Shown here piece after piece: positions 8,559 to 26,583 of a stretch of 43,523 nucleotides of DNA. Under the pieces are notes generated by a model. That model was given only the letters and a program-made list of their open reading frames with translations, was not told where the DNA came from and did no database searches. The stretch is from positions 1 through 43,523 of the forward strand of contig JBBRLJ010000043.1 in the NCBI GenBank assembly GCA_038231435.1, in the 5' to 3' direction. Made by a program: the position numbers and the translations under genes. The DNA comes from Planctomycetota bacterium. GTDB lineage: Bacteria; Planctomycetota; UBA11346. How positions within the stretch are numbered: the stretch's first letter is position 1; each line of letters begins with the position of its first letter.

Positions 8559-8588
8559 GGCTGCATGCAGCCGAGTCGGCGGGGCTGG

Positions 8589-9725: not shown

Positions 9726-9780
9726 GCGAGGCAACGCTAGGGCTGCCCCGCGCTGGCCAAGCGAGGAACCGGCTCGCGGT

Positions 9781-11049: not shown

Positions 11050-11094
11050 CAGGAGGCCGCGCCGCTCATCATCGTGGGGCGGGCATCGGACGGC

Positions 11095-12378
11095 CTAGGC
11101 CGTCTCCTTCGCGCCACCGGGCGGCTCGTAGATCGTGGCCTTGCCGGCGACGACGTCCGCGGTGACGGTGAACTGCTTCTGGAACTTCACGCGCTGGGGC
11201 AGGTCGAACATCATGTCGAGCATGACTTCCTCGAGGATGGCCCTGAGCGCGCGCGCTCCGGTCTTGCGTTCCTGCGCCTTGCGCGCGATGCCGCGGAGCG
11301 CTTCGTCGGTGAACGACAGCTCGGCGCCCTCCATCGAGAACAGCGCCTGGTACTGCTTGACCAGCGAGTTCTTCGGCTGGGTGAGGATCGAGCACAGCGC
11401 GTCCTCGGAGAGCGGCTGCAGCGCGACGGTGACCGGCAGGCGGCCGATGAATTCGGGGATCATGCCGAAGTTGACCAGGTCCTCGGGCAGGACCTGCGAC
11501 AGCAGGCGCTCGTCCTCGCTGACGTCCGAGCCCTGGGGCGAGGCGTCGTCCATCTTGAAGCCGACGGTGCGATCGCCGAGCCGGCGCGAGACGATTTCGG
11601 GCAGGCCCGAGAACGCGCCGCCGCAGATGAAGAGGATGTTCTCGGTGTTGACCTGAATGTACTTCTGCTCGGGGTGCTTGCGCCCGCCGCCCGGAGGCAC
11701 GTTCGCTACCGTGCCCTCGACCAGCTTGAGCAGCGCCTGCTGCACACCCTCGCCCGAGACGTCGCGCGTGATCGAGACGTTGCCGCTCGAGCGCGCGATC
11801 TTGTCGACCTCGTCGATGTAGATGATGCCCATCTCGGTACGCGGGATGTCGAAGTCGGCGTTCTGCAGCAACCGCAGGATGAGGTTCTCGACATCCTCGC
11901 CGACGTAGCCCGCCTCGGTGAGGGTGGTGGCGTCGCCGATCGCGAACGGGACGTTCAGGAGCTTCGCCAGGCAGCGCGCGATCGCGGTCTTGCCGCAGCC
12001 GGTGGGGCCGAGCACCAGGATGTTGGATTTCTCGAGCTCGACCGCGCTGCCCTGCTGGTTGTGGCGCAGGCGCTTGTAGTGGTTGTAGACGGCCACCGCG
12101 ACGGTGCGCTTCGCCTGCTCCTGACCGATGATGTACTGATCCAGGTGCGCCTTGATCTCGGAGGGCGTGAAGATCTTGCCCAGGCGCGGAGCCTCGGTGC
12201 CGCCCTTGCGCTTGCCCTGGTCGCGCAGCAGCGTCGAGCAGACCTCGACGCACTCGTTGCAGATGAAGATGTCAGGCGGGCCGGCGATCAGGCGATCGAC
12301 CTGGTTGGTATTGCGGCCGCAGAAGCTGCAGTTGTCCGACGGACCCTCGCCTTCGCCCTTCTTGTTCTTGATGACCAT
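11095..12378 (-). CDS. clpX: ATP-dependent Clp protease ATP-binding subunit ClpX
   Basis: CSFCG zinc finger, GPTGCGKT Walker [21 protein letters not shown]. Confidence 0.98.
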
Positions 12379-12436
12379 TGCTGACTTCTTCCCTAATGAC
12401 GATCGGGATGATGGTTCGGGTCGGCGAGGGGGGCGT

Positions 12437-13027
12437 TCAGGGCGTGATCACGGGCTTGGAGACGACCTTGTCGATCAGGCCGTAGGAGCAGGCCTCTTCG
12501 GCACTCATGTAGTGGTCGCGCTCGCAATCGCGGACGACCTTCTCGTAGGGCTGGCCGGTCTTGGCGGCGAGGATGCGATTGAGCTCGTTCTTGAGCCGCA
12601 GCAGCTCCTTCGCCTGGATCTCGATATCGGTCGCCTGGCCCTGGGTGCCACCCATGGGCTGGTGGATCATGATGCGCGCGTGGGGGAGCGCGAAGCGCTT
12701 GCCCTTGGTACCGGCGGCGAGCAGGAAGGCCGACATGCTGGCGGCCTGGCCGACGCAGACGGTGACCACGTCGCAGGTCAGGTACTGCATGGTATCGTAG
12801 ATGGCGAAGCCGGCGCTGACCACGCCGCCCGGGCTGTTGATGTACAAGGTGATGTCGGCGTCGCGCTTCTGGCTCTGCAGGAACAGCAGCTGGGCGACCA
12901 CGACGTTGCAGACGAAATCATCGATGGGCTCGCCCAGGAAGATGATGCGGTCCTTGAGCAGTCGGCTATAGATGTCGTAGCTGCGCTCGCCGCGCGAATC
13001 CTTCTCGATGACATAGGGAATGGGCAT
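12437..13027 (-). CDS. clpP: ATP-dependent Clp protease proteolytic subunit
   Basis: [37 protein letters not shown]. Confidence 0.98.
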
Positions 13028-13303
13028 GGGTTCCTCGGAGGAAGCGGGTACTCCCGCCCAGCGTACAGCGGGCGGAAATTTTCACAAATCGTTCTAGCAC
13101 ACCATGCGCAAGACGCCCGGGGCTCTTCAGCGGCGCTCGGACGCGCCATGGGTCACACGGCGCGGGATGCGTCACGAACGCGGCTGTAAACAGGACTGAT
13201 CCCGGTAGAACCGACGACGTTCACCCATGGCCGCGTGGCTTCGGGCCCACAAGCCCGCCCCCACGACGCCTTGTCCACCCCCAGCCCGCCGTCGAGGCCT
13301 CCT

Positions 13304-14827
13304 ATGTTCCTGCGCGCGCTCGCCGCCTTCATCCTCACCGTGTCGTTCGCCTTCGCCGAGGACACCCTCGACGACATGGTCAAGAAGACCGATATGAGCA
13401 GCGCCGACGCGGTGTTCTCGCTCGGCCAGTGGTGCAACGAGCACAGCCTGCCCACCAAGGCTCGCCAGTACTACAATCAGGCGATCAAGCTCGACAAGAA
13501 CCACGAGGGCGCGCGCGCAGCGCTCGGCCAGGTACGGGTCGGCGAGCGCTGGGTCGCGCAGAGCCAGCTGACTCCGCCCGCCGGCGGGAAGAAGCCCGAG
13601 GGTGCCGCGGCTGGCGGCGTCGGCGCAGCCGGCGGCTCGTCGCACGCCGGACCGAGCGCGGCACAGATCACCTGGGAGCTGAAGGTGCCGCGGGACCCGC
13701 AGCCCGACAACGTCTTCATCACCCAATACATCGAGAAGCTGCCCAGCCTGAAGAACGAGTCCACCGAGATGGACAGCGCGGTCATGACCATGGTGCGCGA
13801 CGACAATGTGGCGACAGCCATCCCGCGCCTGTGCGCCGCCTTGGCGCGCCCCGAGTTCAACGACGTCTATGGCGCCGCCAGCGTCGCGGCCCAACTGATC
13901 AAGGATGGCAAGATCGAGACCGCGCGCCCGCTCCTGCCTTTCCTGGCCAAGGCCAGCGAGCACGTCAGCGATCCGCAGGATCTGGACATGTGCGCCTTCG
14001 CGCTCGGCGCGTTCAAAGACCGCCGCGCGGTGCCACGCCTGATCGAACTGCTCGACAACAAGGACGCGCACGACACCGCCGAGGTCGCCCTCGGGTCGAT
14101 CACCGCATTGCCGCTGCCGATCCCGAAAGGCAAGGCCCAGGAATGGTGGGATCGCAATCACGACGCGGACCCGAAAGCTGTGTACCTTGAGCAGCTCAAG
14201 AGCAGCGACCCCAACGCGCAGGCAGACGCCGCGTCCGCGCTCCTGACGCTGCGCGAGAAAGCGATGTTCCCGACCGTCATCAAGCTGCTGCGCTCGGACG
14301 ATCGCCAGGTCAACGGCAAGGCGTTGAGGATCGTCGTCAAGATGACCGGGCTCGACTTCCAATATCTCGAGGCGAAGACCAAGGAGGACAAGGAGAAGCG
14401 GGTGCAGATGATCGAGAAGTGGTGGAAGGACAACGGCCCGCACTTCCAGTTCCCCGAGACCGCCAAGGATCCCGAGCCGGTCGCCCAGGCGAACGCGCCC
14501 GCTGTGGACGAGGCGTTGGCGTGGATCGACGACCTGTCCTCGATCGCCGGCAACAAGGCGCAGCAGGCCGAGGCCAACCTCCAGTCCAAGGGCCTGGGCG
14601 CGGTGCCGGCGCTGATCGGCGGGCTCGAGAGCAGCGCGCCGGTGGTGCGCCGCAAATGCAACGACCTGCTCAAGACCATCACCAAACAGGATTTCCAGTT
14701 CGATCCGCGTGCCGAAGACGCCGACCGCGCCAAGGCCGTGGGTGCCTGGCGCACCTGGGCCAAGGACAAGAACGTGATGACGGATTCGGGCGAGGTCCCC
14801 GAGCCGGCGGACGCGCCCAAGAAGTAG
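13304..14827 (+). CDS. Secreted HEAT-repeat protein
   Basis: Signal peptide MFLRALAAFILTVSFAFA; HEAT-like repeats (AVPRLIELL, AVPALIGGLES). Confidence 0.75.
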   Translation: MFLRALAAFILTVSFAFAEDTLDDMVKKTDMSSADAVFSLGQWCNEHSLPTKARQYYNQAIKLDKNHEGARAALGQVRVGERWVAQSQLTPPAGGKKPEGAAAGGVGAAGGSSHAGPSAAQITWELKVPRDPQPDNVFITQYIEKLPSLKNESTEMDSAVMTMVRDDNVATAIPRLCAALARPEFNDVYGAASVAAQLIKDGKIETARPLLPFLAKASEHVSDPQDLDMCAFALGAFKDRRAVPRLIELLDNKDAHDTAEVALGSITALPLPIPKGKAQEWWDRNHDADPKAVYLEQLKSSDPNAQADAASALLTLREKAMFPTVIKLLRSDDRQVNGKALRIVVKMTGLDFQYLEAKTKEDKEKRVQMIEKWWKDNGPHFQFPETAKDPEPVAQANAPAVDEALAWIDDLSSIAGNKAQQAEANLQSKGLGAVPALIGGLESSAPVVRRKCNDLLKTITKQDFQFDPRAEDADRAKAVGAWRTWAKDKNVMTDSGEVPEPADAPKK

Positions 14828-14907
14828 CGCGCGGAATGCGCTCCCGCTCGTTCCGGCTCGGCCGTGGCGCGGGATTGACCACGCTGGCGCTCGTCCAGGC
14901 TGCGCTC

Positions 14908-15636
14908 ATGGCGACCGCTGGAGATACCGACGGCAGGAGCGCTCGGCCCGACATCCGGGCCAATGTCGCCGCGGTCCGCGCCGACATGGCCGAGTCCTGC
15001 CGCCGCGCTCGGCGTGATCCCGCCTCGGTGCGCCTGATCGCCGTCACCAAGAGCCAAGGGCCAGAGGTGCTTGCCGCCCTCGCGGCCGAGGGTGTCCACG
15101 ATTTCGGCGAGAACCGCGTCGATCATCTCGAGCAGATGCTCGCTGCCGCGCCCGCGGACTCGGCCTTCCATGCCATCGGACGGATCCAGGGCCGTCAGCT
15201 GCGCGAGGTGGTCGCCGGGTGCGCCTGCCTGCATAGCCTGTGCGACGCCTCCCATCTGGCCAAGCTCTCGCAGCTGTGCGTCGACGCCCGGCGCACGCTG
15301 CCGGTCTTCGTCCAGGTGAACACCAGCGGCGAGGCCGCTAAAGCCGGTCTCGAGCCCACTGCGCTGGAAGCGTTCCTCGATGGCGCACGCGGCAAACCGG
15401 GCGTCGAGATCGTCGGGCTCATGACCATGGCGCCGGAGCTCTCATCCTCGGCGGCATCGTCGACGGCCTCGTCCGCACCATCCCCATCTGCCGTGCGCGC
15501 ATGCTTCGCGCGGCTGCGCGAGCTCGCGGCCGTCCATCGCCTGCCACGCCTGAGCATGGGCATGTCGCAGGATTTCGGCATCGCGATCGAGGAGGGGGCG
15601 ACCGACATCCGCGTCGGCACCCGGCTGTTCGCATGA
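14908..15636 (+). CDS. yggS: PLP homeostasis protein (YggS family)
   Basis: LIAVTK, FGENR, VQVNTSGE, GLMTM, LSMGMSQDF..AIEEGAT.IRVGT. Start may be 14836. Confidence 0.93.
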   Translation: MATAGDTDGRSARPDIRANVAAVRADMAESCRRARRDPASVRLIAVTKSQGPEVLAALAAEGVHDFGENRVDHLEQMLAAAPADSAFHAIGRIQGRQLREVVAGCACLHSLCDASHLAKLSQLCVDARRTLPVFVQVNTSGEAAKAGLEPTALEAFLDGARGKPGVEIVGLMTMAPELSSSAASSTASSAPSPSAVRACFARLRELAAVHRLPRLSMGMSQDFGIAIEEGATDIRVGTRLFA

Positions 15637-16367
15637 GCGGTGGACCGGAGCCGCACGGACAGATCGACGAAGTCGTCGCGCACGAGCTCGCCCTGGCGGA
15701 GCTGCGGCGCCAGCTGGTGTACGTGCGCTGGCCAGTGGAACTCGCTCTCAACCGCAATCGCCGCATCCTCATCAGCCTGCGCGGCTCGCGCTGGCGCGGC
15801 ATGCGCCTGAGCATCCATCGCGAACTGCTCCGCCACCCGGCCGCGCTCGCCGATCTGCCGCGCTGGGTCGCGGCGGGGGGGCGGACGCGCAGCCCGGCGA
15901 TCTCCGCTGCGCTCGATGCCGCCGGGCGCACGCTGCGCGCGCGCGAGCGCGTCGCCCATCCCCCACTGGTGCTCGAAGCGCTCGGCGGGCCGCTGGCGCT
16001 CGATACGGCGTTCGCGCGCATCCACGCGGAGTGGTTCCCGCACCTCGCCAAGCCCGCCGTGAGCTGGGGCCGGGCCGCTCGCCAGGCGCGCCGGCACGTG
16101 CGCTTCGCCATGTATCGCCGTTCGCCAACGCCGCAGGTCGTCGTCAACCGCAGGCTCGACCAGGCCTGGGTGGCGCGCGAGTTCGTCGACTTCGTCCTCT
16201 ACCACGAGCTCTGCCATCATGCCCAGGCGTGCGCCCCGCTGCGCGGCGAGACCGCCCACAGCGCACGGTTCCGCGCCTGGGAGCGCCGCTATCCGCGTTT
16301 CGACGAGATCCTGCGCTGGGAGCGCGAGAATCTCGACCGCTTCCTCGACCGCGCGAGTCCGGCGTGA
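15633..16367 (+). CDS. SprT/YgjP-like zinc metalloprotease-domain protein
   Basis: VLYHELCH (HExxH) plus HSARFRAWE; ATGA overlap with the yggS stop. Confidence 0.75.
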   Translation: MSGGPEPHGQIDEVVAHELALAELRRQLVYVRWPVELALNRNRRILISLRGSRWRGMRLSIHRELLRHPAALADLPRWVAAGGRTRSPAISAALDAAGRTLRARERVAHPPLVLEALGGPLALDTAFARIHAEWFPHLAKPAVSWGRAARQARRHVRFAMYRRSPTPQVVVNRRLDQAWVAREFVDFVLYHELCHHAQACAPLRGETAHSARFRAWERRYPRFDEILRWERENLDRFLDRASPA

Positions 16368-18358
16368 CCACCACCATCGCCTGCACGCTGGCGTGGAGCG
16401 CTGGTGCGATCGCCGTCCCAGCGGATGCGCCGGACATGCCGGGGGTCAAGGCCCTGCGTCTGGACATGGGCGACGCCCGCGGCCCGCTGCGCGTCAGCGC
16501 CTCCGACTGGCGCAGGCGCTACCTGACCATTGATCTCCGCCACCTCGGAGCGCACTGCGGCAGGCTGTTCGTGCGCTTCTTCGCGCATGGCGAAGCGGAA
16601 CGGCGGATCGAGATCCTGCTCGGCCTGATTCCCGGGGTGCGCGCGCGCATCTCGCTCGATCTCGAGCTGCTCGCCGGCCAACGTATCTTCCTGCGCCGGC
16701 ATCCGGGCGCCCTCAAGGGGGTGTGTTTCGGGCGCCGCGTCGATCCCGATGATGTCAGCCATGCGACCATCGAGCTCGAGGATACCGGAGGGGGGCAGCG
16801 ACTGTGGCTGGCCGCGCCGATACTGGGCGACGATGATCTCTGCCAGGTCGAAGTCGCCGAGCCGCTGGTCGACGAACTCGGTCAATGGCGGACCAAGGCC
16901 TGGCCAGGGAAGACCGGCGGCGCGCGGGAGCTTGCGCATGATCTCGCGGCCTCCGCCGCCGAGGATGGCGTCTGGCCCTCGACCTGGAGCCGCTTCGGCG
17001 GCAGCCTGGCGCATCGATTCGCGGCGAGCGGCTACTTCCGTACCCATCACGATGGGCGGCGCTGGTGGCTGGTCGATCCGGACGGCTGCGGATTCTGGAG
17101 CGCGGGCCTCGACTGCGTACGGCCCGGCGCCGACTCAGCGATGGTTCCAGGCACTGAGGGCATGTTCACCTGGCTGCCTCGCGACGATGCGGATTTCACG
17201 GACTGCTGGCATGGGCAGGGGGCGCGCGGGCCGAGTGCGGATTTCAGCGCCGCGAACCTGCGCCGGGTGTTCGGGGACGGATGGAAGAACACCTGGAGAT
17301 CGCTCACCGCCAAGCGGCTGCGTGCGTGGCGCTTCAATACCGTCGCCAACTGGTCCGACACCGAGATCGCGCGCGAGCAGGGGGTCCCCTACGTGACCCA
17401 GATGTCCGGCTATCCATCGACACCGATGACGCTGTTCCGCGATCTGCCCGACGTCTTCGATCCGGCGTTCGCCATAAACGCCGCCTCCTGGGCGGAATCC
17501 CTGCGACCGCTGCGCGACGACCCGCTGCTGATCGGTTATTTCCTCGCCAACGAACCTGAATGGGGCTTCGGGAAATTCAACCTGGCCGCGGAAATGCTGG
17601 AGGGGGCTCCCGGCTCGCACACGCGGCGCGCGCTCGCCGGCTTCGTCCGCCGCCGCTACGCGGACGATGTCGCCGCCTGGTCGCGCGCCTGGAAGCGCCC
17701 GTTCGACTCCTTCGACGATCTGGTCGACGGCATCCATCGGCGCCTGGCGGACAGCTCCCCTGCTGCGGACGCCGATCTCTGGGAATTCTCGAAGGACATC
17801 GTGCGCATGCACGCGCGCATCCCGAGCGAGGCAGCGCGCGCCGTGGATCCGCACCACCTGAACCTCGGCCTGCGCTACGCCTGGATCGCCTCGGACCTCT
17901 TCTACGAAGCCGGTGCCTTCTTCGACGTGTTCTCGGTCAACTGCTACGCCGCCATCCCAGACGAGGCCGCGGTGGCCGAGATCGCCAAACGCTGCCGGCT
18001 GCCGACGATGATCGGCGAATTCCACTTCGGCGCCCTCGACCGCGGCCTTCCGGCAACCGGCCTGCGCGGCGTCGCCGACCAGGTCCAACGCGGCGTCGCC
18101 TATCGACGCTTCGTCGAACGCTGCGCCGCCAATCCCGATCTCATCGGCGCGCACTATTTCACCTTGGCCGACCAGTCCCTGACCGGGCGCTTCGATGGCG
18201 AGAACTACCAGATCGGTTTCGTCGACGTCTGCCATCGCCCATACGCCGAACTGGTGGCAGCGGCCACGTCCACGCACGAGCGGCTCTACGCCATCGCCGA
18301 TGGCAGCGTCTCGCCCTTCGACACGCCTGCCGTCGAGGCTCCGCGAGTAGCGTTCTAG
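16364..18358 (+). CDS. Glycoside hydrolase, GH50/beta-agarase-like (clan GH-A)
   Basis: GRRWWLVDPDG, WRFNTVANWS, IGYFLANEP, DPHHLNLGLRY, MIGEFHFGA, DGENYQIGFVD; GTG start overlaps the upstream stop. Confidence 0.75.
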   Translation: MTTTIACTLAWSAGAIAVPADAPDMPGVKALRLDMGDARGPLRVSASDWRRRYLTIDLRHLGAHCGRLFVRFFAHGEAERRIEILLGLIPGVRARISLDLELLAGQRIFLRRHPGALKGVCFGRRVDPDDVSHATIELEDTGGGQRLWLAAPILGDDDLCQVEVAEPLVDELGQWRTKAWPGKTGGARELAHDLAASAAEDGVWPSTWSRFGGSLAHRFAASGYFRTHHDGRRWWLVDPDGCGFWSAGLDCVRPGADSAMVPGTEGMFTWLPRDDADFTDCWHGQGARGPSADFSAANLRRVFGDGWKNTWRSLTAKRLRAWRFNTVANWSDTEIAREQGVPYVTQMSGYPSTPMTLFRDLPDVFDPAFAINAASWAESLRPLRDDPLLIGYFLANEPEWGFGKFNLAAEMLEGAPGSHTRRALAGFVRRRYADDVAAWSRAWKRPFDSFDDLVDGIHRRLADSSPAADADLWEFSKDIVRMHARIPSEAARAVDPHHLNLGLRYAWIASDLFYEAGAFFDVFSVNCYAAIPDEAAVAEIAKRCRLPTMIGEFHFGALDRGLPATGLRGVADQVQRGVAYRRFVERCAANPDLIGAHYFTLADQSLTGRFDGENYQIGFVDVCHRPYAELVAAATSTHERLYAIADGSVSPFDTPAVEAPRVAF

Positions 18359-18434
18359 CCACAAAGTCCGTCGTCATGGCCTGACGTCGGCCTTGGATCG
18401 TCGAGTTCTGCACATTTCACGAAACCGCCTGATT

Positions 18435-19481
18435 CTAACGTGGTTTCACCATGATTAAATTTACATAATATATATTATCGGACATCTTGGAAATGGCGAC
18501 GGCTGCATGGTACCAGTCTCCGCCGGATCGGAAAACTGTCCACGATAAGCGCTTACGAAGCATGTTCTGGACATGGCGAAGCGGGATCGTGCGCCGGACC
18601 CAGCGCGAGAGCCGCGACACCTGGAACACATTCAGCGTGACCGACTGGCAGTCACCGTGGGGCAGGTTCCCGGGGTTTCGGATACCCCAGATCCGCCCGT
18701 CGAGACGACGCTCCGCATCCAACTTTCCGAGGTACTTGGCGCAGTACGCGGACGCGACTCGCCATGACCGCACGAGCTCGACGCGCGTTCCTGCTCGCAG
18801 GTGCTTGTCATCGCCTGAACCAACAACATCGAACCAGGATTTGGACACCCAGGCCTTCACCGCCACGCTGCACGGGACATTCCAGACCAGCAGGTGGAAA
18901 TGCGGAGCGCCGCGCTTTTGGTATTCGAGCTTCCAGATGGCGGCAGCATGCGGGAAGAACCTGAAGAATCGCCGAAACCAGTTATCGAGGTGCTTTTTCC
19001 AACCCCGCCAGTCTGGATCCCATGCAGCAGGATAGGTCAAGGTGATCATCACCGGGCGCGCGTCACGATCGAGCTTCGCGAATCGCCGTAAAAGACGCCG
19101 ACGCGAAGCCTTCGAGAAGCCGCACACCCGGCCGCGTATGGCAGGGGGCTCATCCCCCTCTGATGTCGTGACTCCTTGCCCCCCTGCATCACGTCGACAC
19201 GAACGGCTTGACCGTGAGCGCCCCCTGCCGGCCGGGAAGTCCAACGCCCGCGGCGTCGGCTCGACCACGCGACTACACTCGAGCAGACCGGGCCATGCCC
19301 TCACCTCGTACAGATCCTTCGATGACCCCCTGTACCCGCAGACATCGATCCCACGCGCTAGCGAACGCGGCGCGGCGCGCGCCGAGATATGCGCCGTAGA
19401 TAAACCCTGGGGGGCTGCGCCCCCCGAGACGGCAGCAGTCGCCAGCGCGTAGGGCGAGAACGTCTCGTACACGCGGCTCAC
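18435..19481 (-). CDS. Rolling-circle replication initiator (HUH endonuclease)
   Basis: Motif I MITLTYP, motif II EYQKRGAPHFHLLVW, motif III AYCAKYLGK (YxxKY). The C-terminal MSDNIYYVN is encoded by the dif site. True start uncertain. Confidence 0.9.
   Translation of the reverse strand: MSRVYETFSPYALATAAVSGGAAPQGLSTAHISARAAPRSLARGIDVCGYRGSSKDLYEVRAWPGLLECSRVVEPTPRALDFPAGRGRSRSSRSCRRDAGGQGVTTSEGDEPPAIRGRVCGFSKASRRRLLRRFAKLDRDARPVMITLTYPAAWDPDWRGWKKHLDNWFRRFFRFFPHAAAIWKLEYQKRGAPHFHLLVWNVPCSVAVKAWVSKSWFDVVGSGDDKHLRAGTRVELVRSWRVASAYCAKYLGKLDAERRLDGRIWGIRNPGNLPHGDCQSVTLNVFQVSRLSRWVRRTIPLRHVQNMLRKRLSWTVFRSGGDWYHAAVAISKMSDNIYYVNLIMVKPR
18458..18485 (-). other. dif: Complete dif-like Xer site (left attachment site; probable chromosomal dif)
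   Basis: Minus strand ATGTCCGATAA-TATATA-TTATGTAAATT has the 11-6-11 architecture. The right arm closely resembles the E. coli XerD arm TTATGTTAAAT and the left arm ends in ATAA like XerC arms. Confidence 0.88.
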
Positions 19482-19945
19482 ACGGCACCGCCTCGCGAGG
19501 CGTCGACAACCGACCGATGATCCCCCCGGCCCGGGCCGGGGTGCTCATCGGGCTGGCTGTCCTCCGCTTCGCTGGCGACGCCGTCCGCGCGCGCCTTGGG
19601 CGCGGGGGACCAACTTGCGGGGGCCCACTGCCCCGCTGCGCCTGGTCCCCCCGCCGAGGCGGCGGCACCCCCTCCGACGCTCTTGGTCGCTCCGGGAGTA
19701 TCGTTCTGCCCGTGCGGCGTGGTCTTGGGCGGCCGCCCGCTCCTGGGAGCGGTTGCAGCCTGCCCTTCGACCACTTCCACGTTCGCCCAATGCACACGGG
19801 GACAGATCGGCATACCAGGTCGGGCACGGCCATTGCCGTCGGTCATTCGCCCACAAAGACGACACTCCCATTTGAGGGAGGTGCGTCCCAATCGATTTCG
19901 ATAGGACCCGATGACCACCCAGCGGTGCCTTGATCGCCACGTCAT
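19478..19945 (-). CDS. Hypothetical protein with CxxC motif, coupled to rep
   Basis: WECRLCG...PIC; stop overlaps the rep GTG (GTGA); divergent from the repressor. The C-terminal half is low complexity. Confidence 0.45.
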   Translation of the reverse strand: MTWRSRHRWVVIGSYRNRLGRTSLKWECRLCGRMTDGNGRARPGMPICPRVHWANVEVVEGQAATAPRSGRPPKTTPHGQNDTPGATKSVGGGAAASAGGPGAAGQWAPASWSPAPKARADGVASEAEDSQPDEHPGPGRGDHRSVVDASRGGAV

Positions 19946-19998
19946 TGACGACGACGCTAAGATTGATCTTCACATCCTGGCTGCCACGTTTCGTGGCA
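19940..19998. promoter_or_regulatory. Divergent control region with palindromic operator candidates
   Basis: CGTCA-T-TGACG (19940-19950), AAGAT-TG-ATCTT (19959-19970) and TGCCACG-TTT-CGTGGCA (19982-19998) lie between the divergent starts. Confidence 0.55.
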
Positions 19999-20792
19999 TG
20001 CCCATCAAGCGGCCTCTACCCCCTACCGCAAAGCGCCTGCGCCAAGCGATGGGCATTGCCAAATTATCTGCAAAAAGCCTGGGCAAAAAGACCGGCCTAA
20101 GCCGCAATGCGATCCAATCCTACGCCGACGGAACGCGAACCGGACTGACCCATATCAAAGCGATGGCTGCGGCACTCGGTGTTTCTGAAGATTGGCTTCT
20201 CACCGGAAATACCCCACCTCCATGGGCAGTAAATGGGGCGACTGAGAGGGTGGAGCAAGTTTTCTCACACATCCCCGAAAGCGTACCGCTTGAAGATTCT
20301 ATAGCCTCCGGGACTACGCTGGCAAAAGACATGTATGTCAAAAGCGGCTTATTTCCTCGCTACTCAGTTGAGATGGATTTCTTTGAGATATGCCAGCTGC
20401 GCGTCTTACTGAATGCAATTGGAAAAATTAATCCGGATGGACTCGAAGGTCTTTTTGAGAAAGAAGTCTTGGCCCGCCTAAACAAAAAACTTGAGACGAT
20501 GATGTGGGGCGTGACGGGTGGAGAAAACCACCTAAAGCAAATGACAGATGCGATTGCTGGTATGAAAATTGCCGGAAAATATATGGATATGGCGAACGAA
20601 TTGTTTGCACGCCTAAGGACTAATGAAGCAAACAAAACGCCCGACATCGATTATGATAGAATTTTCAACGACACGGTTGCGAAGTACGGTTTTGAAATCG
20701 GCATGTCAATGCTTCCGGCCATTATTGAAAAAGCGCATTCCGAATCACTCTCGAAGGGGCCTTCGGCTCCTTCAGGCCCCTTCCCGCTGTAG
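19998..20792 (+). CDS. XRE/cI-like HTH repressor
   Basis: AKRLRQAM...LSAKSLGKKTGLSRNAIQSY...IKAMAAALGVSEDWLLTG is a typical XRE HTH; likely start MPIKRP at 19998; C-terminal domain unrecognised. Confidence 0.85.
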   Translation: MPIKRPLPPTAKRLRQAMGIAKLSAKSLGKKTGLSRNAIQSYADGTRTGLTHIKAMAAALGVSEDWLLTGNTPPPWAVNGATERVEQVFSHIPESVPLEDSIASGTTLAKDMYVKSGLFPRYSVEMDFFEICQLRVLLNAIGKINPDGLEGLFEKEVLARLNKKLETMMWGVTGGENHLKQMTDAIAGMKIAGKYMDMANELFARLRTNEANKTPDIDYDRIFNDTVAKYGFEIGMSMLPAIIEKAHSESLSKGPSAPSGPFPL

Positions 20793-20810
20793 CGGGCCCC
20801 TTCCTCTTAA

Positions 20811-20879
20811 GTCGCTTCGGCGCTCGCGCAGCCATGTGAAAGAGCTCGGCGAAACGTCCGGCGCAGTGACAAGTTAGGC
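20811..20879 (-). other. Truncated attC site (R''/L'' half only)
   Basis: Plus 20856-20882 GTCCGGCGCAGTGACAAGTTAGGCATC matches 22011-22037 of an intact attC at 24/27 positions; the L'/R' half is missing. Confidence 0.7.
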
Positions 20880-20894
20880 ATCGCTGATAAGTTA

Positions 20895-21356
20895 TTATTT
20901 ATTTCGAGGATCTATTGCTTCTTTAATTATTGATTTGAGCTCTTCCTGGTGCTTCTCAACGTTTTTTACCATATGTGTAGATATGGCTTCGTTTATGTCA
21001 TTAATCTTAGAAAAGTATCTACGGCCTGATTCTGTCTTCGCAAATGAAACGATGTCAGCTAACTCTTCCTTTGAAAAGGTATCTTTCATTTCCGCCTTAT
21101 ACGCTTCATCAAATGACTCTACTGTAAACCATTTATTATAATATTGTTCCAACTGTCCCTTTACCTTTATAAGAACTGGGTAACATTCAACTTCGGATCG
21201 CACAATAATTTTTTTTGTTGCCTCTACTTGTTTTTGAACGCCAGTTAGATCACTTAATTCTTGGATTAGCTCCTCTGAAGTTCGAATGACTTCAGCTGAC
21301 CACGCGGAACAGGATAGAATACTTTTCAGAATAATTAGAGTCAGGCAATACTTCAT
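20895..21356 (-). CDS. Cassette gene: secreted DUF2059-like protein
   Basis: Signal peptide; FSKEELADIVSFAKTESGRRY resembles the DUF2059 pattern; AT-rich; followed by an attC half-site. Confidence 0.7.
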   Translation of the reverse strand: MKYCLTLIILKSILSCSAWSAEVIRTSEELIQELSDLTGVQKQVEATKKIIVRSEVECYPVLIKVKGQLEQYYNKWFTVESFDEAYKAEMKDTFSKEELADIVSFAKTESGRRYFSKINDINEAISTHMVKNVEKHQEELKSIIKEAIDPRNK

Positions 21357-21517
21357 AAGGTATTTATCTTTCCTGTAATGCGTGGGTCAATGTTACGGAA
21401 TACTTTAATCGGTGTGGTTAGGGGCGTAGGTCATTGCCAGCTTCACAATGCGCAAATCCGCGGCGCAGGCACAATAGAATTGCAGCGATCTGATGGGCTC
21501 CTGATACATAGATAGTG

Positions 21518-21880
21518 TCAGTTTTTTTTAAGGAATGCGTACTTTTTCAGAAAGAGATAAGCAGATAAAATTCCTAATGGTAGTCCGAATAAAAAACGCA
21601 CAGTCATACTATAATTGGTATCGTTCTTAGCCATGTAAAAAAGTATGTTCCCAAATTTTGACGCGGGTGGCCAAAGATAGAAGGTAGCACAGTAAATTCC
21701 CATCAATATTCCACACAGCAAGCTAAAGCTACCATATATAATGATACCCAACAGCTTTGAGTCAGGTTCTATTAGAATCGGTATCCGTTCTCCTATGAAG
21801 GAATGCCCACAGGAACAGCGAGTCGCGTTCAAATAGGTCGACTGGCCGCAGTCTGGACAAAACCGTTTTTCGTAAGTCAT
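21518..21880 (-). CDS. Cassette gene: zinc-ribbon membrane protein
   Basis: CPDCG...RCSCG followed by two TM helices; starts 13 bp after a GTTAGGC core site. Confidence 0.7.
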   Translation of the reverse strand: MTYEKRFCPDCGQSTYLNATRCSCGHSFIGERIPILIEPDSKLLGIIIYGSFSLLCGILMGIYCATFYLWPPASKFGNILFYMAKNDTNYSMTVRFLFGLPLGILSAYLFLKKYAFLKKN

Positions 21881-21893
21881 GAGGTAATCAGAC

Positions 21894-22034
21894 GCCTAAC
21901 ACCCGAGGTCACCGGCGGCTGTCTGGGGGCACTTCTCGATGTCGCGGCGCAGGCACAATGGGAGCGTAGCGACCGCCGAGCACGACATTGAGAAGTGCCC
22001 CCAGACAGACGTCCGGTGCAGTGAGTAGTTAGGC
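21894..22034 (-). other. Integron attC site (141 bp)
   Basis: Top (minus) strand GCCTAAC-TACTC-ACTGCACCGGACG...CCGCCGGTGACCTCGGGT-GTTAGGC, with a long internal stem (plus strand CTGTCTGGGGGCACTTCTC / GAGAAGTGCCCCCAGACAG). Confidence 0.92.
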
Positions 22035-22044
22035 ATCACGGGGA

Positions 22045-22614
22045 TTATAAGGATTGCATTTCAGTAACTATATTTAATTCACTATAGTGAAGATAGACTA
22101 ACTTGCCTCTATTTAAATAGATTACATGATCTTTATCTGCGGTGTATGGGTTACCCATGATGGATACGACTTCCTTCCTTGTCATTCCCGCGTGTAATTC
22201 AGGGAATGGATCATAAGGTATTCTACCTTTGAAATATGCGACTTCAGGCTGGATAGAATGGAGGACGACATCAAAATAGACAACGCGAGCATACCCACTT
22301 GTCGTTTTTGTTATCACTGGATATAATTCTAAGTTCTCAATTCGTTTTGCATTCGTAGAGGAAATAATATCTGCGCTGGCCACTTGCTTAGGTGTAACCT
22401 TGCTACTGTGTGGCATTACATCCGGGTCTCTTAGTAAAGTCGGGATTGATTCTTCGTCTATGCTAACATAGCTGGCATCAAGTATAAGTTCTTCAGAATT
22501 GACAATGGTATAGGATTCAGCAGATATATTTTCATTTCTAATGTCGTTGCCGCAAGACGTGAGTGCAGAAAGTGCGAATATCATGACAGGACATGTTGAA
22601 TATTTATTATACAA
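22045..22614 (-). CDS. Cassette gene: putative lipoprotein with SmpA/OmlA-like C-terminal motif
   Basis: Lipobox-like ALTSC; LHAGMTRKEVVSIMGNP; start TTG 22614 or ATG 22584; stop lies 10 bp before the attC. Confidence 0.7.
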   Translation of the reverse strand: MYNKYSTCPVMIFALSALTSCGNDIRNENISAESYTIVNSEELILDASYVSIDEESIPTLLRDPDVMPHSSKVTPKQVASADIISSTNAKRIENLELYPVITKTTSGYARVVYFDVVLHSIQPEVAYFKGRIPYDPFPELHAGMTRKEVVSIMGNPYTADKDHVIYLNRGKLVYLHYSELNIVTEMQSL

Positions 22615-22652
22615 TTTATAATTCCATTTTCAAAGTAAACGATGCTCGTGAC

Positions 22653-22745
22653 GCCTAACAACCAAGATCAGCGGCGCCGAGCCAATAACCGTTCGCCAAG
22701 CACAGAAACCGCCCGACGGGGCGTCCGTTGCATCGCCAGTTAGGC
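22653..22745 (-). other. Integron attC site (93 bp)
   Basis: Top strand GCCTAAC-TGGCG-ATGCAACGGACGCC...GGCGCCGCTGATCTTGGTT-GTTAGGC. Confidence 0.9.
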
Positions 22746-22835
22746 CTGTGAGCAGAATAATTGTTACACTTCATTTTGAAATCAGGCTTGTCAAGAGATG
22801 AGTAAAATGATATCAAGATGGCTTCCATGCCTTCT

Positions 22836-23255
22836 TCATTTTATCTTATTAATTTTTAATGATTCCAATTCTTTTATAAAATCTGTCAGCTCACTGGAGG
22901 ATACCACTCGATTTGAATGAACTGTAAATTTAGATTTATCTTTAGTGTGAATTGTTATGGATGCATCGAATTTACTTCGGCTATATCCTATTATTTGATT
23001 AATTGGAATTTCAACATGCGTCGGTGAATAAAACACCAAATTGTCATTTTTAAGAGTTACATATGGGCGCCCAAGTTTAATAAACCAAATGAACAAACCA
23101 ATACATGGAATGGCAAGAGCACAAAGTGCAGATATATTGAAACCGCTTTTGGCTGCTGCACCAAAAGCCATTACAATAGCAATGCCTGCCGGAACTACCA
23201 TTTGGGTATTTCCAGAGTCGTAAATCAAAAGTTCTTCGTCTTTGGGGATTTTCAC
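22836..23255 (-). CDS. Cassette gene: small membrane protein (two TM helices plus beta-rich, PH-like C-terminus)
   Basis: Two hydrophobic segments followed by YVTLKNDNLVFY...IPINQI; AT-rich; first cassette after the putative attI. Confidence 0.7.
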   Translation of the reverse strand: MKIPKDEELLIYDSGNTQMVVPAGIAIVMAFGAAAKSGFNISALCALAIPCIGLFIWFIKLGRPYVTLKNDNLVFYSPTHVEIPINQIIGYSRSKFDASITIHTKDKSKFTVHSNRVVSSSELTDFIKELESLKINKIK

Positions 23256-23278
23256 GATTGTCGATCTATTAAATTCAG

Positions 23279-23296
23279 GCCTAACACCAATTAGGC
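23279..23296 (-). other. Putative attI-like simple site heading the cassette array
   Basis: Minus strand GCCTAA-TTGGT-GTTAGGC is a compact inverted pair resembling attI1 (CCCTAAAACAAAGTTRRRY). No matching R'' box exists upstream, unlike in an attC. Confidence 0.5.
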
Positions 23297-23709
23297 GTCA
23301 AAAGTGACGTAATATACCACGTCAGGCCAATGCCTGACGTGGTAAGGTCCTGAGTCCCAAAGGCTAGAAAACATTGAGCCCCAACGCGCATGTCACTGGT
23401 CATATTGGCCTAATTCGAATGAACAACTTCCAAGTAAAGCAATCACAATACATATTGTCACCGTTCATCGGGCAGAAAATTCCACCCGCGTCCTTTGGGA
23501 CAGACATTTAATCCCCCTGCCCTCATTCCGTTGGTGTCCGTCATCGCTCCACAGCGCTTGCATTGGAACTGGATGGTTGGCCTGCGGAGTCGGTTCAGAT
23601 AGTGTCCGATGTGTACCCATCGATGCCTCAGATACCAACTTGAAGAAGATCCGTGCGAATGGATCTTCCTAAGGTAGACTTGAAGTTGATCATAAAGTGC
23701 TTTGTCTAC

Positions 23710-23737
23710 TGGCCTTAGGATATATATTATCGGACAT
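23710..23737 (-). other. Right attachment site: dif-like with intact XerC arm and degenerate XerD arm
   Basis: Minus strand ATGTCCGATAA-TATATA-TCCTAAGGCCA; 18 bp identical to the left site. Confidence 0.85.
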
Positions 23738-23820
23738 TATATTCTAGATCAAGACATCATCTGCTTTGGAACCGAATGACGTGATTCCGAACATCCACCG
23801 CAGCCTGGCGATGACGTCGA

Positions 23821-26583
23821 TCAATGGCCCTCGATCACTCCAGCCGCGGCTTCGCGCATCGCCGTGAATGCACGTGGCGTAATTGATCCGTACGACGACG
23901 TGCCCGCGTCATCCTGGTTCTTCTGCATGTGGTGGCCGTCGAGATCCAGGTAGCGGGACATCCAGGTGCGCAGGTCCGCGCGCGAGAGACTGAGCTTGTC
24001 CTGCATCATCGTCAGGTATTCGACGTCCTGTTCGGCGCGCAGATATGCGTCCAGGCGTATGGAGGGGAAGATCTCGGTCCGGCTGTCTGTCGCGCCAACC
24101 GCCTTGCCATCCTGTTTCGATTCGGGGTGGGCGAAGACGAATAGCCCCAGCTGGTCCCCCTTCTTCATAGCCTCGCCGCTCTGGTCGATGGTTTGCCAGG
24201 GCACGACTCCGCTCGCGCCGCGCGAGAAGGCGTCGAGGACCCAGGCCTGAGTCTGGCGGTTACTCTCCTCGACGGCGTTGGTGGTGCCATAGACCCACAG
24301 CCGTTCGCCGGTCACGGCCGAGCGGTCGAGCACCAGGCGCTGGTACTGCTGGTATGCGCCAAAGGCCACCACCCACAGACCGGCGGCGCCGTCGAGGGCG
24401 CCGCGGTCGAACTCGGGGCGCGAGATGTCGATGCGGTAGTCGAGGCGGATCGGGCAGTGGTCGCCTTTCGCCTGGCGAACCAGATCGCCGAAGAATCCCA
24501 GCGCGCGGTAGTCCCACCACGACGCGGGCTCGTCGAGCGTCCAGGGATTGAATGCCGGATCGCCTGGCTTGGTCTTGTTGTTGCAGAACACCTGGAATCC
24601 GGTCTCGGTCCATTTCTGGGCCTTCGCGGTGCGGATGAAGTCCTGCAGGATTGCCACGAAGGTCGTGGCGTATTCGGGGTGCGCAGCGAATCCGGCCCGC
24701 GCGTCGAGGTCTCCGTTCCAATACGGACGCATGTTCAGCGGCCAGCTCTCATGGAAGGTGAGGTAGAACCCGGGCGCCGGCACCGGCCCGCGATGCCCGT
24801 CCGCGAACAGCGAGCCCGACAGGTACGGACCGAAGGCGGCGATGAAGTCGTCCCAGTAGGCATGGGTGTCACCGGGGGCGATGCGGTTGTAGCGGGCCTC
24901 GTCCATGCGCTCGCCCGACGGCAGGCGCATGTCGAGCGAGCATTTGCGTGCGCCAGCGGCGGCGGTGCGGTGCGAGTAATGCAGGATGTTGGCGTGCACG
25001 CGGCGATCGTAGGCGAGCCACTGCAGGCGGTCGAACTCGTCCACCGAATCGGGGAGCCCATAGCCGTTCATCTCGCAGGCGAAAGTCGCGCGCTTCGGCA
25101 GGGCGAAGGAGCGCACATGCAAGCGGATCGGCAGCGAGCGACCGTCGGACACGGTGAATGATCCGACCACGTCCCGCGCCGATCCGGCGAACGGCACGTA
25201 CACCTCGACCGCCAGCGGAAGGTCCTCGGTCGCCGACAATTCGATCTCGTGGTGTTCCGGGCAGGGGATCATCGGATCGGGGACGCGGCCAACGGGAGTA
25301 TCGACCAGCAGGACGCGATGCACGTCGACGCGGCAGCCGGGGACGGTCGCGGTCACGGCCACGCGCCCCCTGCCGCGCGCCAGCACCTGGAATCCAACCA
25401 CTTCGCCACGCGCGGCCGAGAGCGTGATGGCCGTGCCGTCGAAGACTTCGTTATGGGCGCGGAAATCGTCCGGCAGCGCGCCGATAGCCTTGCCCCCTAC
25501 GTCGTACTTGTCGAGCAGTGGGATCACCGCCAGGCCTTCCGGTGGGTCTTCAGGCGTGCTGCGGCCTGGAGCTTTCGCTACGTCCTTCGGCGGTATTGGC
25601 GGCATTGGCAGAGATGGCGGCCGTGGCGCTGTCACGGTGACGGTGGCCGCTGACGATGCGCGTCCAGCGCGGTCGATCACCGTCACCGAGATCGGTTCGC
25701 CCTTGGGGATCACCACGTCGCGCACCCAGATGGTCTGCAGCTCTCCAGGGATCAATCGAGGGATGTCCCAACGCGGCAAGGCCGCCGCTCCCACCATGAC
25801 GCGATAGGCGAATCCGTGCGTGGGCGCGCGCACGCGCACGGCGAACACCCCGGGCTCCACCGGACGCATGGAGAGCTCGCTCGCGGGCTCGGCGCGCTCG
25901 CCAGCATCGACAGGGGCGCATCGCACCAGCAGGTAGGGCTCGCTTCCGGACTGCTCGCGCGAACAGATCGTGGGATTGCGTGAATAGTCCACCGTGGCCT
26001 CGTGCACGCATAGGCCGAAGGCGCATCCGGTGGCGAGCGCGTTCACCAGATCGGGGTCGATGCGCCACGAGTAGACGCCGTCCGCGAGCGCCGCCGACGC
26101 GGCGCTCAACGCCGAACCGGCATTGCCGCCGCACACCGCCGGGAAACGCATGCCCAGCACGCCCCAGCCATCGACGCCGGCGATGCCAGCGGTGAGCGCG
26201 TTCGACGCGTACTCGTCCCACGGGGCCTGGATGGTCGAGACCACGACCGGGCCGAGGTCGATGTCTGCGCGATGGCACACCAGAGTCGCCTCGATGGCGA
26301 CGCGGCCATGCAATGGCGCCATATCGAATGCCAGCGCCACCAGGTGCTGGTTGCCCTTCACGCGGATGTGCGCGGCCTTGCCGGCGTTCTCGCGCTCCTC
26401 GCCCTGATAGAGCACGATCGAGTTGTCGGCCACGCAGGGAAGCCGCACCACCTCCGGTGCGCTGGCTCCGTGCGCGCTATCTGCGCCGAGGGCGACGAGC
26501 GCGACCAGCGGCAGCCACGACGGCCATCCGGAGCCTGCGGAGGCGATGCGCTCGCGGAGCCTAAGCGCCGGGGCGATGCTCAC
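23821..26583 (-). CDS. Large secreted protein with DUF4091/GH123-like C-terminus
   Basis: Signal-like N-terminus; LSAARGEVVGFQV; C-terminal PSIRLDAYLRAEQDVEYL; GTG at 26583 overlaps the upstream stop. Confidence 0.6.
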   Translation of the reverse strand: MSIAPALRLRERIASAGSGWPSWLPLVALVALGADSAHGASAPEVVRLPCVADNSIVLYQGEERENAGKAAHIRVKGNQHLVALAFDMAPLHGRVAIEATLVCHRADIDLGPVVVSTIQAPWDEYASNALTAGIAGVDGWGVLGMRFPAVCGGNAGSALSAASAALADGVYSWRIDPDLVNALATGCAFGLCVHEATVDYSRNPTICSREQSGSEPYLLVRCAPVDAGERAEPASELSMRPVEPGVFAVRVRAPTHGFAYRVMVGAAALPRWDIPRLIPGELQTIWVRDVVIPKGEPISVTVIDRAGRASSAATVTVTAPRPPSLPMPPIPPKDVAKAPGRSTPEDPPEGLAVIPLLDKYDVGGKAIGALPDDFRAHNEVFDGTAITLSAARGEVVGFQVLARGRGRVAVTATVPGCRVDVHRVLLVDTPVGRVPDPMIPCPEHHEIELSATEDLPLAVEVYVPFAGSARDVVGSFTVSDGRSLPIRLHVRSFALPKRATFACEMNGYGLPDSVDEFDRLQWLAYDRRVHANILHYSHRTAAAGARKCSLDMRLPSGERMDEARYNRIAPGDTHAYWDDFIAAFGPYLSGSLFADGHRGPVPAPGFYLTFHESWPLNMRPYWNGDLDARAGFAAHPEYATTFVAILQDFIRTAKAQKWTETGFQVFCNNKTKPGDPAFNPWTLDEPASWWDYRALGFFGDLVRQAKGDHCPIRLDYRIDISRPEFDRGALDGAAGLWVVAFGAYQQYQRLVLDRSAVTGERLWVYGTTNAVEESNRQTQAWVLDAFSRGASGVVPWQTIDQSGEAMKKGDQLGLFVFAHPESKQDGKAVGATDSRTEIFPSIRLDAYLRAEQDVEYLTMMQDKLSLSRADLRTWMSRYLDLDGHHMQKNQDDAGTSSYGSITPRAFTAMREAAAGVIEGH

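Follow-up and report, generated by a model that had tools for sequence, protein, structure and literature searches.

We examined a 43,523-nt stretch of DNA (hereafter, the window), which is the whole of one contig (C43; JBBRLJ010000043.1) of a metagenome-assembled genome from a Planctomycetota bacterium (GCA_038231435.1; 5,198,390 bases in 108 contigs). This genome is 87.6% complete. Between positions 18458 and 23737, the window contains a 5.25-kb element that begins at a complete dif site, ends at a dif half-site, and encodes a rolling-circle Rep protein, a divergent XRE-type repressor, and an integron piece having four AT-rich cassettes (Table 1). We consider it probable that this is an integrative mobile element exploiting Xer (IMEX) with a Rep of an inovirus-type family, and that it has captured a ready-made integron fragment as a block.

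Borders and surroundings of the element

The element is delimited by an exact 18-bp direct repeat, ATATATATTATCGGACAT, at 18468-18485 and 23720-23737 (spacing, 5252). These are the only two copies in the entire 5.2-Mb assembly, and by simple arithmetic ~0.014 chance repeats of 18 nt would be expected in 43.5 kb. A first-pass annotation of the window, made from the sequence alone, had already proposed this repeat as the boundary of the element, and the proposal stands. It had further placed both copies inside dif-like sites, which is accurate for the left border and only half accurate for the right. The known layout of dif is an 11-nt arm, a 6-nt centre, and a second 11-nt arm, and the left site follows it exactly as a complete 28-bp dif (AATTTACATAA / TATATA / TTATCGGACAT) with no second genomic match at ≤7 mismatches. 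At the right site, the central region and the XerC arm are the same as in dif, and the XerD arm is absent (2 of 11 positions match). No further half-site was found within the element. The bases to the right of the half-dif, TATATTCTAG, are weakly similar to the flanks that follow dif in two relatives (G021 and G016). The locus consequently has the structure that defines an IMEX, namely insertion into a chromosomal dif, a dif plus a second site sharing its XerC arm and centre, and no recombinase of its own. An inverted repeat (23669-23719; CCTAAGGTAGAC ... GTCTAC..CCTTAGG) abuts the right half-dif; it folds weakly (z -1.6) and could be a terminator or a part of the attachment site.

The same dif was sought in 40 relatives of the host. 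Near-identical sites (1-3 mismatches) were present once each in 6 genomes of the host family, with differing flanks. A second half-site was absent from all six (2-12 kb per locus), indicating that dif is solitary in these genomes. The dif consensus, approximately AWTTACATAATATAYATTATCGGACAT, is conserved in seven host-family genomes (window positions 18458-18485 and loci L019-L024), so that a conserved dif becomes available for a high-GC lineage that has been little studied. In the passages of it cited here, a 2011 survey did not predict dif in the sole Planctomycetes genome that it tested (PMC3025954). GC skew across the window offered no usable switch at dif.

Two same-genus genomes (61% and 79% complete) could be compared for the surroundings of dif. 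In both, dif lies beside the same SprT-like gene and the element is absent. The SprT-like gene (15501-16367 in the window, 63% identical) is ~180 nt from dif in these two genomes; in the window, a 2-kb gene without a Pfam or NCBIfam match separates the two (15501-18358). On the XerC-arm side of dif synteny is lost, and the genes found there in one of these genomes (G002) have homologues on another contig of the host (C53). The right flank is rearranged in the relatives, so no synteny exists for an empty dif between both flanking genes, and neither of the two same-genus genomes yielded the left flanking gene. As both flanking genes are without a match in Pfam or NCBIfam, the names that the first-pass annotation had given them, 'GH50-like' and 'DUF4091-like', could not be confirmed.

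Candidates for the enzymes that such an element would borrow are encoded elsewhere in the host genome, and the search for intI, xerC, and xerD that the first-pass annotation had advised yielded an intI and XerC- and XerD-like genes. Two full-length Xer-type genes are present, one on contig C30 (best match to XerD, 293 bits) and one at C17:23262-24152 (best match to XerC, 307 bits). An intact intI occupies C17:106635-107582, with an open frame of 362 aa and a score of 465-466 bits against a cut-off of 265. Zot (PF05707) had no match in this 87.6%-complete genome and no helper was found.

The Rep-XRE backbone and the integron piece

The match of Rep to PF23343 exceeds the gathering score of this family, and phrog_3419, which it also matches, is annotated as 'rolling circle DNA replication initiation'. 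Both assignments place the protein with the inovirus-type (ORF2/G2P) Reps, as does the occurrence of the same family next to Zot in a prophage described below. In an alignment with 31 relatives, Rep retains 31 of 31 invariant columns, including T147/T149/Y150/P151, H194/H196, and Y246/K249. Its closest relative is 45% identical over residues 19-332 and is encoded on a contig of 1997 nt whose two ends share a repeat of 127 nt, which corresponds to a ~1.87-kb circle. The profile match and the match to this relative both stop at nt 18486, which is the edge of the att site; the last 17 codons of Rep traverse dif, and the circular form would have nine other codons in their place. Because homology spans residues 19-332 and the profile match reaches 18486, Rep can be regarded as complete.

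The divergently oriented XRE protein matches phage-repressor PHROGs at E 4e-11. The earlier proposal of an HUH Rep facing a divergent XRE repressor is thus borne out, and so is the resemblance of this layout to rstR/rstA of CTX, although only as a layout: with the RstR model (NF041951), the XRE protein scores 21.2 bits against a cut-off of 80. Its C-terminal 180 aa are AT-richer (46% GC) and had no relative among 1.84 billion representatives in an exhaustive HMMER search, which recovered the helix-turn-helix domain only. For all 136 non-self HMMER matches, the best-matching segment falls within the N-terminal half (residues 12-161), and a word-based search returned no relatives of similar length. 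No recombinase, Zot, or coat family was detected by Pfam, PHROGS, or NCBIfam in the seven ORFs (open reading frames) of the element, and there was no tyrosine recombinase match on contig C43, with serine recombinases being covered solely by the Pfam scan of the seven ORFs. The first-pass annotation had likewise seen no recombinase or morphogenesis gene here.

Between Rep and XRE is a 430-bp stretch, in which the first-pass annotation had seen a small ORF. The frame exists, whereas its coding status is doubtful: GC content at the three codon positions is flat (0.70/0.68/0.72), no family matches the product, and no homologue was found outside of the window, the sole homologue being a remnant at 23494-23640. 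It is more likely that 19478-19945 is regulatory or origin DNA than a coding sequence. A GC-rich hairpin within it (-24.7 kcal/mol, z -3.56, equalled by 1 of 200 shuffles) is a candidate replication origin. An Rfam search of 18000-24200 returned nothing at E 0.1 or better.

The remnant just mentioned is part of a second, diverged version of the region between Rep and XRE, which, like the attI-like site described below, does not figure in the first-pass annotation. Identity in tblastn is 49% over 49 aa (E 7e-11), and the two copies can also be aligned as DNA. This copy stands at the position where an intI would be expected and is followed by the half-dif. We take 23494-23680 to be the remnant of a second element copy or of an internal duplication.

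Table 1. Features of the element, in order of position within the window
Feature	Position	Strand	Remarks
HUH rolling-circle Rep, 348 aa	18435..19481	-	PF23343 (REP_ORF2-G2P), E 8.7e-13; phrog_3419, E 2.7e-11
Complete dif, 28 bp	18458..18485	.	XerD-arm side 18458-18468, central 18469-18474, XerC-arm side 18475-18485
'Small ORF', 155 aa	19478..19945	-	Coding status doubtful
GC-rich palindromic hairpin	19505..19560	-	~30 nt upstream of Rep start; 19-nt arms
XRE/Cro-type repressor, 293 aa	19911..20792	+	HTH_3, E 5.5e-7; helix-turn-helix at ~residues 40-100; divergent from Rep
Truncated long-type attC	20812..20879	-	R''/L'' (5') half only; left junction of integron piece
Cassette ORF c1, 153 aa, 36% GC	20895..21356	-	Sub-threshold DUF2059 match only
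Degenerate attC remnant, c2/c1	21410..21500	-	Centre and part of 3' half kept; 5' half and canonical R' box lost
Cassette ORF c2, 120 aa	21518..21880	-	
Intact long-type attC, 141 nt	21894..22034	-	Same family as host integron attCs
Cassette ORF c3, 189 aa	22045..22614	-	Promoter-like site just upstream
Intact short-type attC, 93 nt	22653..22745	-	R''/R' pair, unpaired spacer, two bulged bases
Cassette ORF c4, 139 aa	22836..23255	-	First cassette; adjoins attI
attI-like site	23279..23345	-	Simple site GCCTAA-N6-TTAGGC, cassette junction GTTAGGC, adjacent inverted repeat
Diverged second Rep-XRE intergenic copy	23494..23680	.	orf155 start and first ~20 XRE codons
Half-dif, right border	23710..23737	.	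Arm at 23710-23720 comes from the element and is no XerD arm; centre and XerC arm same as dif

The integron piece measures ~2.6 kb and lacks an integrase. It comprises an upstream platform of ~130-170 bp, an attI, and four AT-rich cassettes, whose ORFs have 35-40% GC compared to 67-68% in the flanks. The identification of this cargo as an integron cassette array, made in the first-pass annotation, is supported by attC families that are shared with the host genus, and its four AT-rich genes are all present; the attC sites said to separate them are intact in two of four cases and broken in the other two. In both intact sites the end boxes are inverse complements (GCCTAAC...GTTAGGC), the spacer is left unpaired, and the inner stem pairs imperfectly. 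The long-type site folds at -52.4 kcal/mol (z -9.7) and is 74-76% identical to a site of the host integron (C17:108355-108497) and to three sites on contig C13. The short-type site is 94% identical to a site in another genome of the genus (G001:C12:69-165) and is related to sites in G002. Its fold energy is unexceptional (z -0.66), and pairing of the R and L boxes holds for all 4 of the 4 members of this family, two of the pairs being compensatory. As for the broken sites, the first 60-70 nt of the one at 20812-20879 align with host long-type attCs and the alignment then diverges, abutting the 3' end of the XRE gene; it is 90% identical over 29 nt to the end of attC2 and forms no hairpin (z +1.7). 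The remnant at 21410-21500 is 83% identical over 30 nt in a repeat comparison and similarly forms no hairpin (z +1.6).

The attC bottom strand is recognised by the position of its bulged bases. In the intact attCs the bulged bases sit on the 3' arm of the + strand, so by this rule the + strand is the attC bottom strand and the - strand the top strand; this polarity agrees with the four cassette ORFs, which are all on the - strand. The site upstream of the first cassette is, from its sequence, attI-like. Over 46-47 nt, the segment 23279-23325 has 89% identity to C17:107780-107825, a site that precedes the first cassette of the host and stands 200-245 nt upstream of the host intI. Both sites have the GTTAGGC cassette junction, the simple site GCCTAA-N6-TTAGGC, and a neighbouring TGACGT...ACGTCA inverted repeat. 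Its hairpins have a z of -8.9. A weaker similarity to the host platform persists for ~100 nt past attI, to ~23400, and no intI remnant was found after attI. With two intact attCs and no intI nearby, the piece is an attC-site cluster without integron-integrases (CALIN), a class defined by at least two attC sites within 4 kb. Of the components of a complete integron, it also has an attI by homology, and the intI is not adjacent but on C17.

The four cassette proteins had no homologue elsewhere in the genome and no match in PADLOC, their Pfam matches were all sub-threshold, and NCBIfam and PHROGS returned nothing useful. A promoter-like site at 22606-22633 (-), which fits the consensus at 11 of 12 positions, adjoins c3, and this cassette may therefore carry its own promoter.

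The host's own integron (intI, attI, first cassette, and attC) at C17:106635-108675 runs off the end of C17, and C13:1-1565 holds three full attCs and one fragment, where the host integron probably continues. As assembled, the main array of the host and the array at dif are of similarly small size. Sequence comparison suggests that the integron piece is related to the host integron and was not copied from it. It may come from a related integron rather than from that of the host, because its attI is only 89% identical and its short attC type is unseen in the assembled array of the host.

Calling of the attC sites by structure was done with a heuristic requiring end boxes, paired ends, and a fold-energy threshold. 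When applied to the 5.2-Mb host genome, it produced 42 matches, consisting of 6 true sites and 36 singletons, i.e. a false-positive rate of ~7 singletons per Mb in this GC-rich genome.

GC content is 67-76% in the flanks and drops to 31-45% over 20850-23100. We compared the region 17800-24400 with Logan contigs from four sequencing runs (X1-X4). Contigs of the probable source run (X1) span 17800-21904 and 21993-24400 with no differences, at contig depths of 11.8 and 12.7 that are similar to the flanking bins. The left junction is bridged in X1, X3, and X4 and the right junction in X1 and X2, and the sole break (21905-21992) falls inside the long attC hairpin. Coverage by X3 and X4 has gaps. 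We regard the assembled structure as real, with the independence of this evidence being limited, given that the four runs come from a single study and the assembly may itself derive from X1. A chimera, in which the AT-rich cassette block was misjoined to a GC-rich contig through attC repeats, is accordingly extremely improbable. The metagenomic origin of the assembly, the 30-point drop in GC, and the break in the attC hairpin would all suit such an error, whereas the difference-free contigs of even depth, the bridging of both borders in other samples, and the agreement of the attI and attC families with other contigs of the same genome all speak against it.

Eight joints at attC or attI ends were also listed in these data, having an attC end (20878/20879, 22033, or 22040) on one side and either 21889-21893, next to attC2, or the attI end at 23279 on the other. 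We rejected them as evidence of cassette shuffling. In seven of the eight, the sides are only 22-30 nt and match the conserved attC/attI ends of other arrays; for example, a loose end at 23279 in X4 reads into the first cassette of the host.

Relatives of Rep and a second cassette-bearing element

From 6451 candidates, a protein search with Rep retained 889 matches (E 0.001 or better), and identity exceeded 55% for none of these. Among genome contigs, 151 stretches encode a Rep relative, of which 80 loci were retained, and a further 85 loci (L109-L193; 281 kb) came from metagenomes and IMG/VR, making a set of 165 loci. In the latter group, 39 of the 85 contigs are 1.2-5.3 kb in size with k-mer-sized terminal repeats and, from these features, probably represent tiny circles that encode hardly anything other than Rep. 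Among them is the contig of ~1.87 kb that encodes the nearest relative of the window Rep.

A direct repeat of at least 15 nt surrounds Rep in 47 of the 80 genome loci. Many of those that were read are tRNA 3' ends and some are terminal overlaps of circular contigs; for 4 of 5 loci checked (L045, L050, L066, and L100), the right-hand repeat falls at a tRNA gene according to ARAGORN. Other members of the family are found at dif. Locus L044 (JBBROD010000003.1, 7642-18193), from a Tepidisphaerales metagenome-assembled genome, has a 15-nt repeat spanning 10.5 kb, within which Rep is followed by Zot (E 7.8e-16), and ARAGORN found no tRNA gene there. The locus has the appearance of a filamentous prophage inserted at dif in this lineage and not yet described. 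Its dif and that of the window have matching XerC arms (GTCCGATAA in L044). Two loci from Acidimicrobiales (L067 and L071) are elements with a dif, a half-site, and the same Rep family, and in all three of these loci the element-side site again lacks the XerD arm. A fourth locus (L075) has a dif-like site for which the partner site was not found. From these results, members of the PF23343 Rep family occur in tiny circles, in elements integrated at tRNA genes or at dif, and in prophages that carry Zot.

A repeated attC family occurs near Rep in a single one of the 165 loci (L050). The single heuristic matches in 14 Rep loci and the three scattered matches in L100 were dismissed as being at the false-positive level. 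L050 is a 9.2-kb element inserted in tRNA-Leu in a metagenome-assembled genome of Fodinibius sp. (NZ_JAXHLU010000014.1, 6791-16012). A 15-nt repeat derived from the 3' end of tRNA-Leu borders it, and arm-type repeats lie close to either end, as are likewise seen in two of its sister elements (L045 and L059). It encodes a tyrosine integrase, an HTH_17 excisionase, and a PF23343 Rep (E 1.2e-18). Its cargo consists of four or five attC sites with cassettes, which are of the host's own attC family. In that host, intI occurs in an intact form on another contig (438 bits) as well as in a degraded form interrupted by two TGA stops, and the attC motif is present 41 times over several contigs. The attC repeat family is absent from four sisters of L050 (L045, L059, L066, and L094), and a search for an attI in L050 found no similarity to the 230 nt upstream of the intI of that genome, where the contig ends. 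The combination of a PF23343 Rep and a cassette array has thus been seen twice, with two different integration modules, and is rare. When we examined whether Rep homologues sit at dif with variable attC cargo, as the first-pass annotation had advised, a dif was found in 3-4 of the 165 further loci and an attC array in one. These frequencies point to a rare capture rather than to a common system.

A probable IMEX with a presumably captured integron fragment

The following sequence of events would account for the locus. A 5252-bp circle would have borne an XerC arm and a central region identical to those of the host dif and no XerD arm, and its recombination with the chromosomal dif by Xer would have regenerated a functional dif at the left border and placed a half-site at the right one. 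The backbone of the element would be a reduced one, consisting of Rep, the GC-rich intergenic hairpin region, and the divergent XRE repressor; because morphogenesis genes are absent, it may be a satellite, a plasmid-like form, or a defective form of a filamentous prophage. The integron piece would have been acquired as a block through non-site-specific recombination, its left end cutting an attC in mid-site and its right end abutting the diverged intergenic copy, and the array would have decayed in part since its capture (two of four attCs are broken). Capture and decay are favoured over active loading because the piece has its own attI and platform, both of its ends are non-site-specific, and half of its attCs are broken. 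The host IntI may still act in trans upon this attI and both intact attCs, and XerCD may still excise the unit.

Several points weigh against this reading. The element has no close relative in the databases searched, with the best Rep relative being only 45% identical, and in a sample of 401 genomes from the phylum, with no more than five first-look candidates scored per genome, the host itself was the only one with a Rep match (E 1e-10 or better). Both of the Xer-like genes score below the curated equivalog cut-offs for XerC and XerD. The attC and attI calls rest upon homology and our own structure heuristic. Comparison did not help to locate the origin, since neither the two intergenic copies nor the Rep end have a non-coding motif in common with the 165 Rep loci. 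Mobility is hypothetical: the public data give no circle junction or empty-site joint, the joints 23709>18486 (circle) and 18485>23738 (empty) being absent from the Logan contigs of X1-X4, which drop rare forms. Finally, the integron piece may have entered either the circle before its integration or the resident element later, and both orders are compatible with the structure. As regards the proposal of a satellite or integrative plasmid that borrows XerCD, the borders, the occurrence of its Rep family in a dif-flanked Zot prophage, and the Xer-like genes of the host uphold the lifestyle, its movement being hypothetical.

The first-pass annotation had also suggested that an IntI acting in trans loads the cargo. 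In its full form, the element would be an active satellite whose attI serves as a docking site, into which the host IntI inserts and shuffles cassettes that the element then ferries between cells. The attI-like simple site, the two intact attCs, and the intact host IntI are in its favour, as is the second element of the Rep family with an attC array (L050), where intI is again elsewhere in the genome, and the 89% similarity to the host attI together with the 94% similarity of the short attC to that of another species hints at a piece from elsewhere. We nonetheless regard active loading as unlikely, since the array arrived as a block with its attI and illegitimate ends and two of its four attCs are broken. 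Furthermore, relatives that differ in their cargo are missing, and an array is found in just 1 of the 165 other Rep loci, for which an attI could not be demonstrated. The strand likely displaced by Rep (the Rep sense) would also present the attC top strands, which are poorly recombined.

It is equally doubtful that the locus is simply an immobile fossil, i.e. two successive or duplicated IMEX copies that decayed, with a chromosomal integron fragment joined to the resident prophage after integration and no movement occurring now. Rep is full length with all of its conserved motifs, the Xer half-sites are still identical over 18 bp, and no internal half-site marks a boundary between two elements. 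Such a history would, on the other hand, agree with the remnant intergenic copy adjoining the half-site, the broken attCs, the fusion-like orphan C-terminal part of the XRE protein with its AT-richer composition, and the failure to find a helper Zot in the 87.6%-complete genome.

Among known systems, the CTX, RS1, and VGJ prophages have a rolling-circle Rep and use host XerCD at dif. The putative IMEX resembles CTXphi RS1/RS2, VGJphi, and Cf/XacF1 in having a Rep with a divergent repressor, no recombinase, and, presumably, dif integration by host XerCD. It differs from CTX-type prophages in its PF23343 Rep, in its low score with the RstR model, in its lack of morphogenesis genes, in its high-GC host, and in its integron cargo. 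TLCphi, a satellite of Vibrio cholerae, is ~5 kb in size with a Rep, no morphogenesis genes, and an attachment site lacking a proper XerD arm, and in all of these features it is similar to the present element. XafT, the XerD-activating factor of TLCphi, presumably carries DUF3653, which had no match at E 0.01 or better in the ORFs of the element; no Pfam match here suggests an XafT-like factor, with the Rep-XRE intergenic region and the orphan tail of the XRE protein being unassigned, and no helper phage is found in the genome. The overlap of the att site with the 3' end of Rep recalls XacF1, whose attP is placed inside a coding region in the passage cited here (PMC5666396).

Accessory genes are linked to an HUH rolling-circle enzyme in the ISCR1 complex class 1 integrons, which are unlike the element in that ISCR1 is a transposase rather than a replicon and makes no use of dif. 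The pdif modules of Acinetobacter plasmids tie accessory genes to Xer sites, according to the cited passages (PMC7399989); unlike the element, they lie on plasmids between inverted Xer sites and have no Rep and no attC. The integrase-less array with an IntI elsewhere in the genome is like a CALIN, with an attI in addition. In the portions of the literature cited here, CALINs are common and half of them are in genomes that encode IntI elsewhere (PMC4889954), and they are viewed as mobilisable in trans (PMC11389934). Likewise, 17 phage CALINs are reported, in tailed phages, one of which, in a Shewanella prophage, has its own attI (PMC9892861). The carrier here is instead a 5.25-kb Xer-dependent Rep element, whereas the passages cited from these three papers deal with no element of a dif-integrated or filamentous type, and the terms 'Inovir' and 'XerC' are both absent from PMC9892861. 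The closest counterpart is L050, a small integrative element with a PF23343 Rep, an internal attC array of the host family, and intI elsewhere; it differs in its tRNA-Leu site, in its own tyrosine integrase and excisionase, and in the convergent orientation of Rep and cassettes. A full-text literature search, leaving most subscription journals uncovered, returned no description of an attC array in a dif-integrated or filamentous-type element. Thus, the combination of an IMEX with a CALIN and attI could not be found described, even though each part is already known.

The weight of this single instance is limited, as it is partly decayed and offers no evidence of movement. Its potential interest stems from the spread of cassettes out of sedentary chromosomal integrons, which is still unclear; the known routes include mobile integrons on transposons and plasmids, phage-borne arrays, and transformation. 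If host XerCD and its own Rep sufficed, an attI and array within a 5.25-kb element would be a very cheap vehicle for both dock and cargo, and two site-specific recombination systems, Xer and IntI, would be linked in one unit. A broader scenario is that small Rep elements at dif or tRNA sites recurrently capture attI/cassette arrays and serve as portable docks for a resident IntI in trans, thereby moving cassettes of sedentary integrons between genomes. Single-stranded intermediates would favour attC folding in this case. In tandem CTX prophages, Rep copies out DNA as a circle, and the two intergenic copies of the present element might similarly let Rep copy out a cargo circle. We judge this scenario to be quite improbable.

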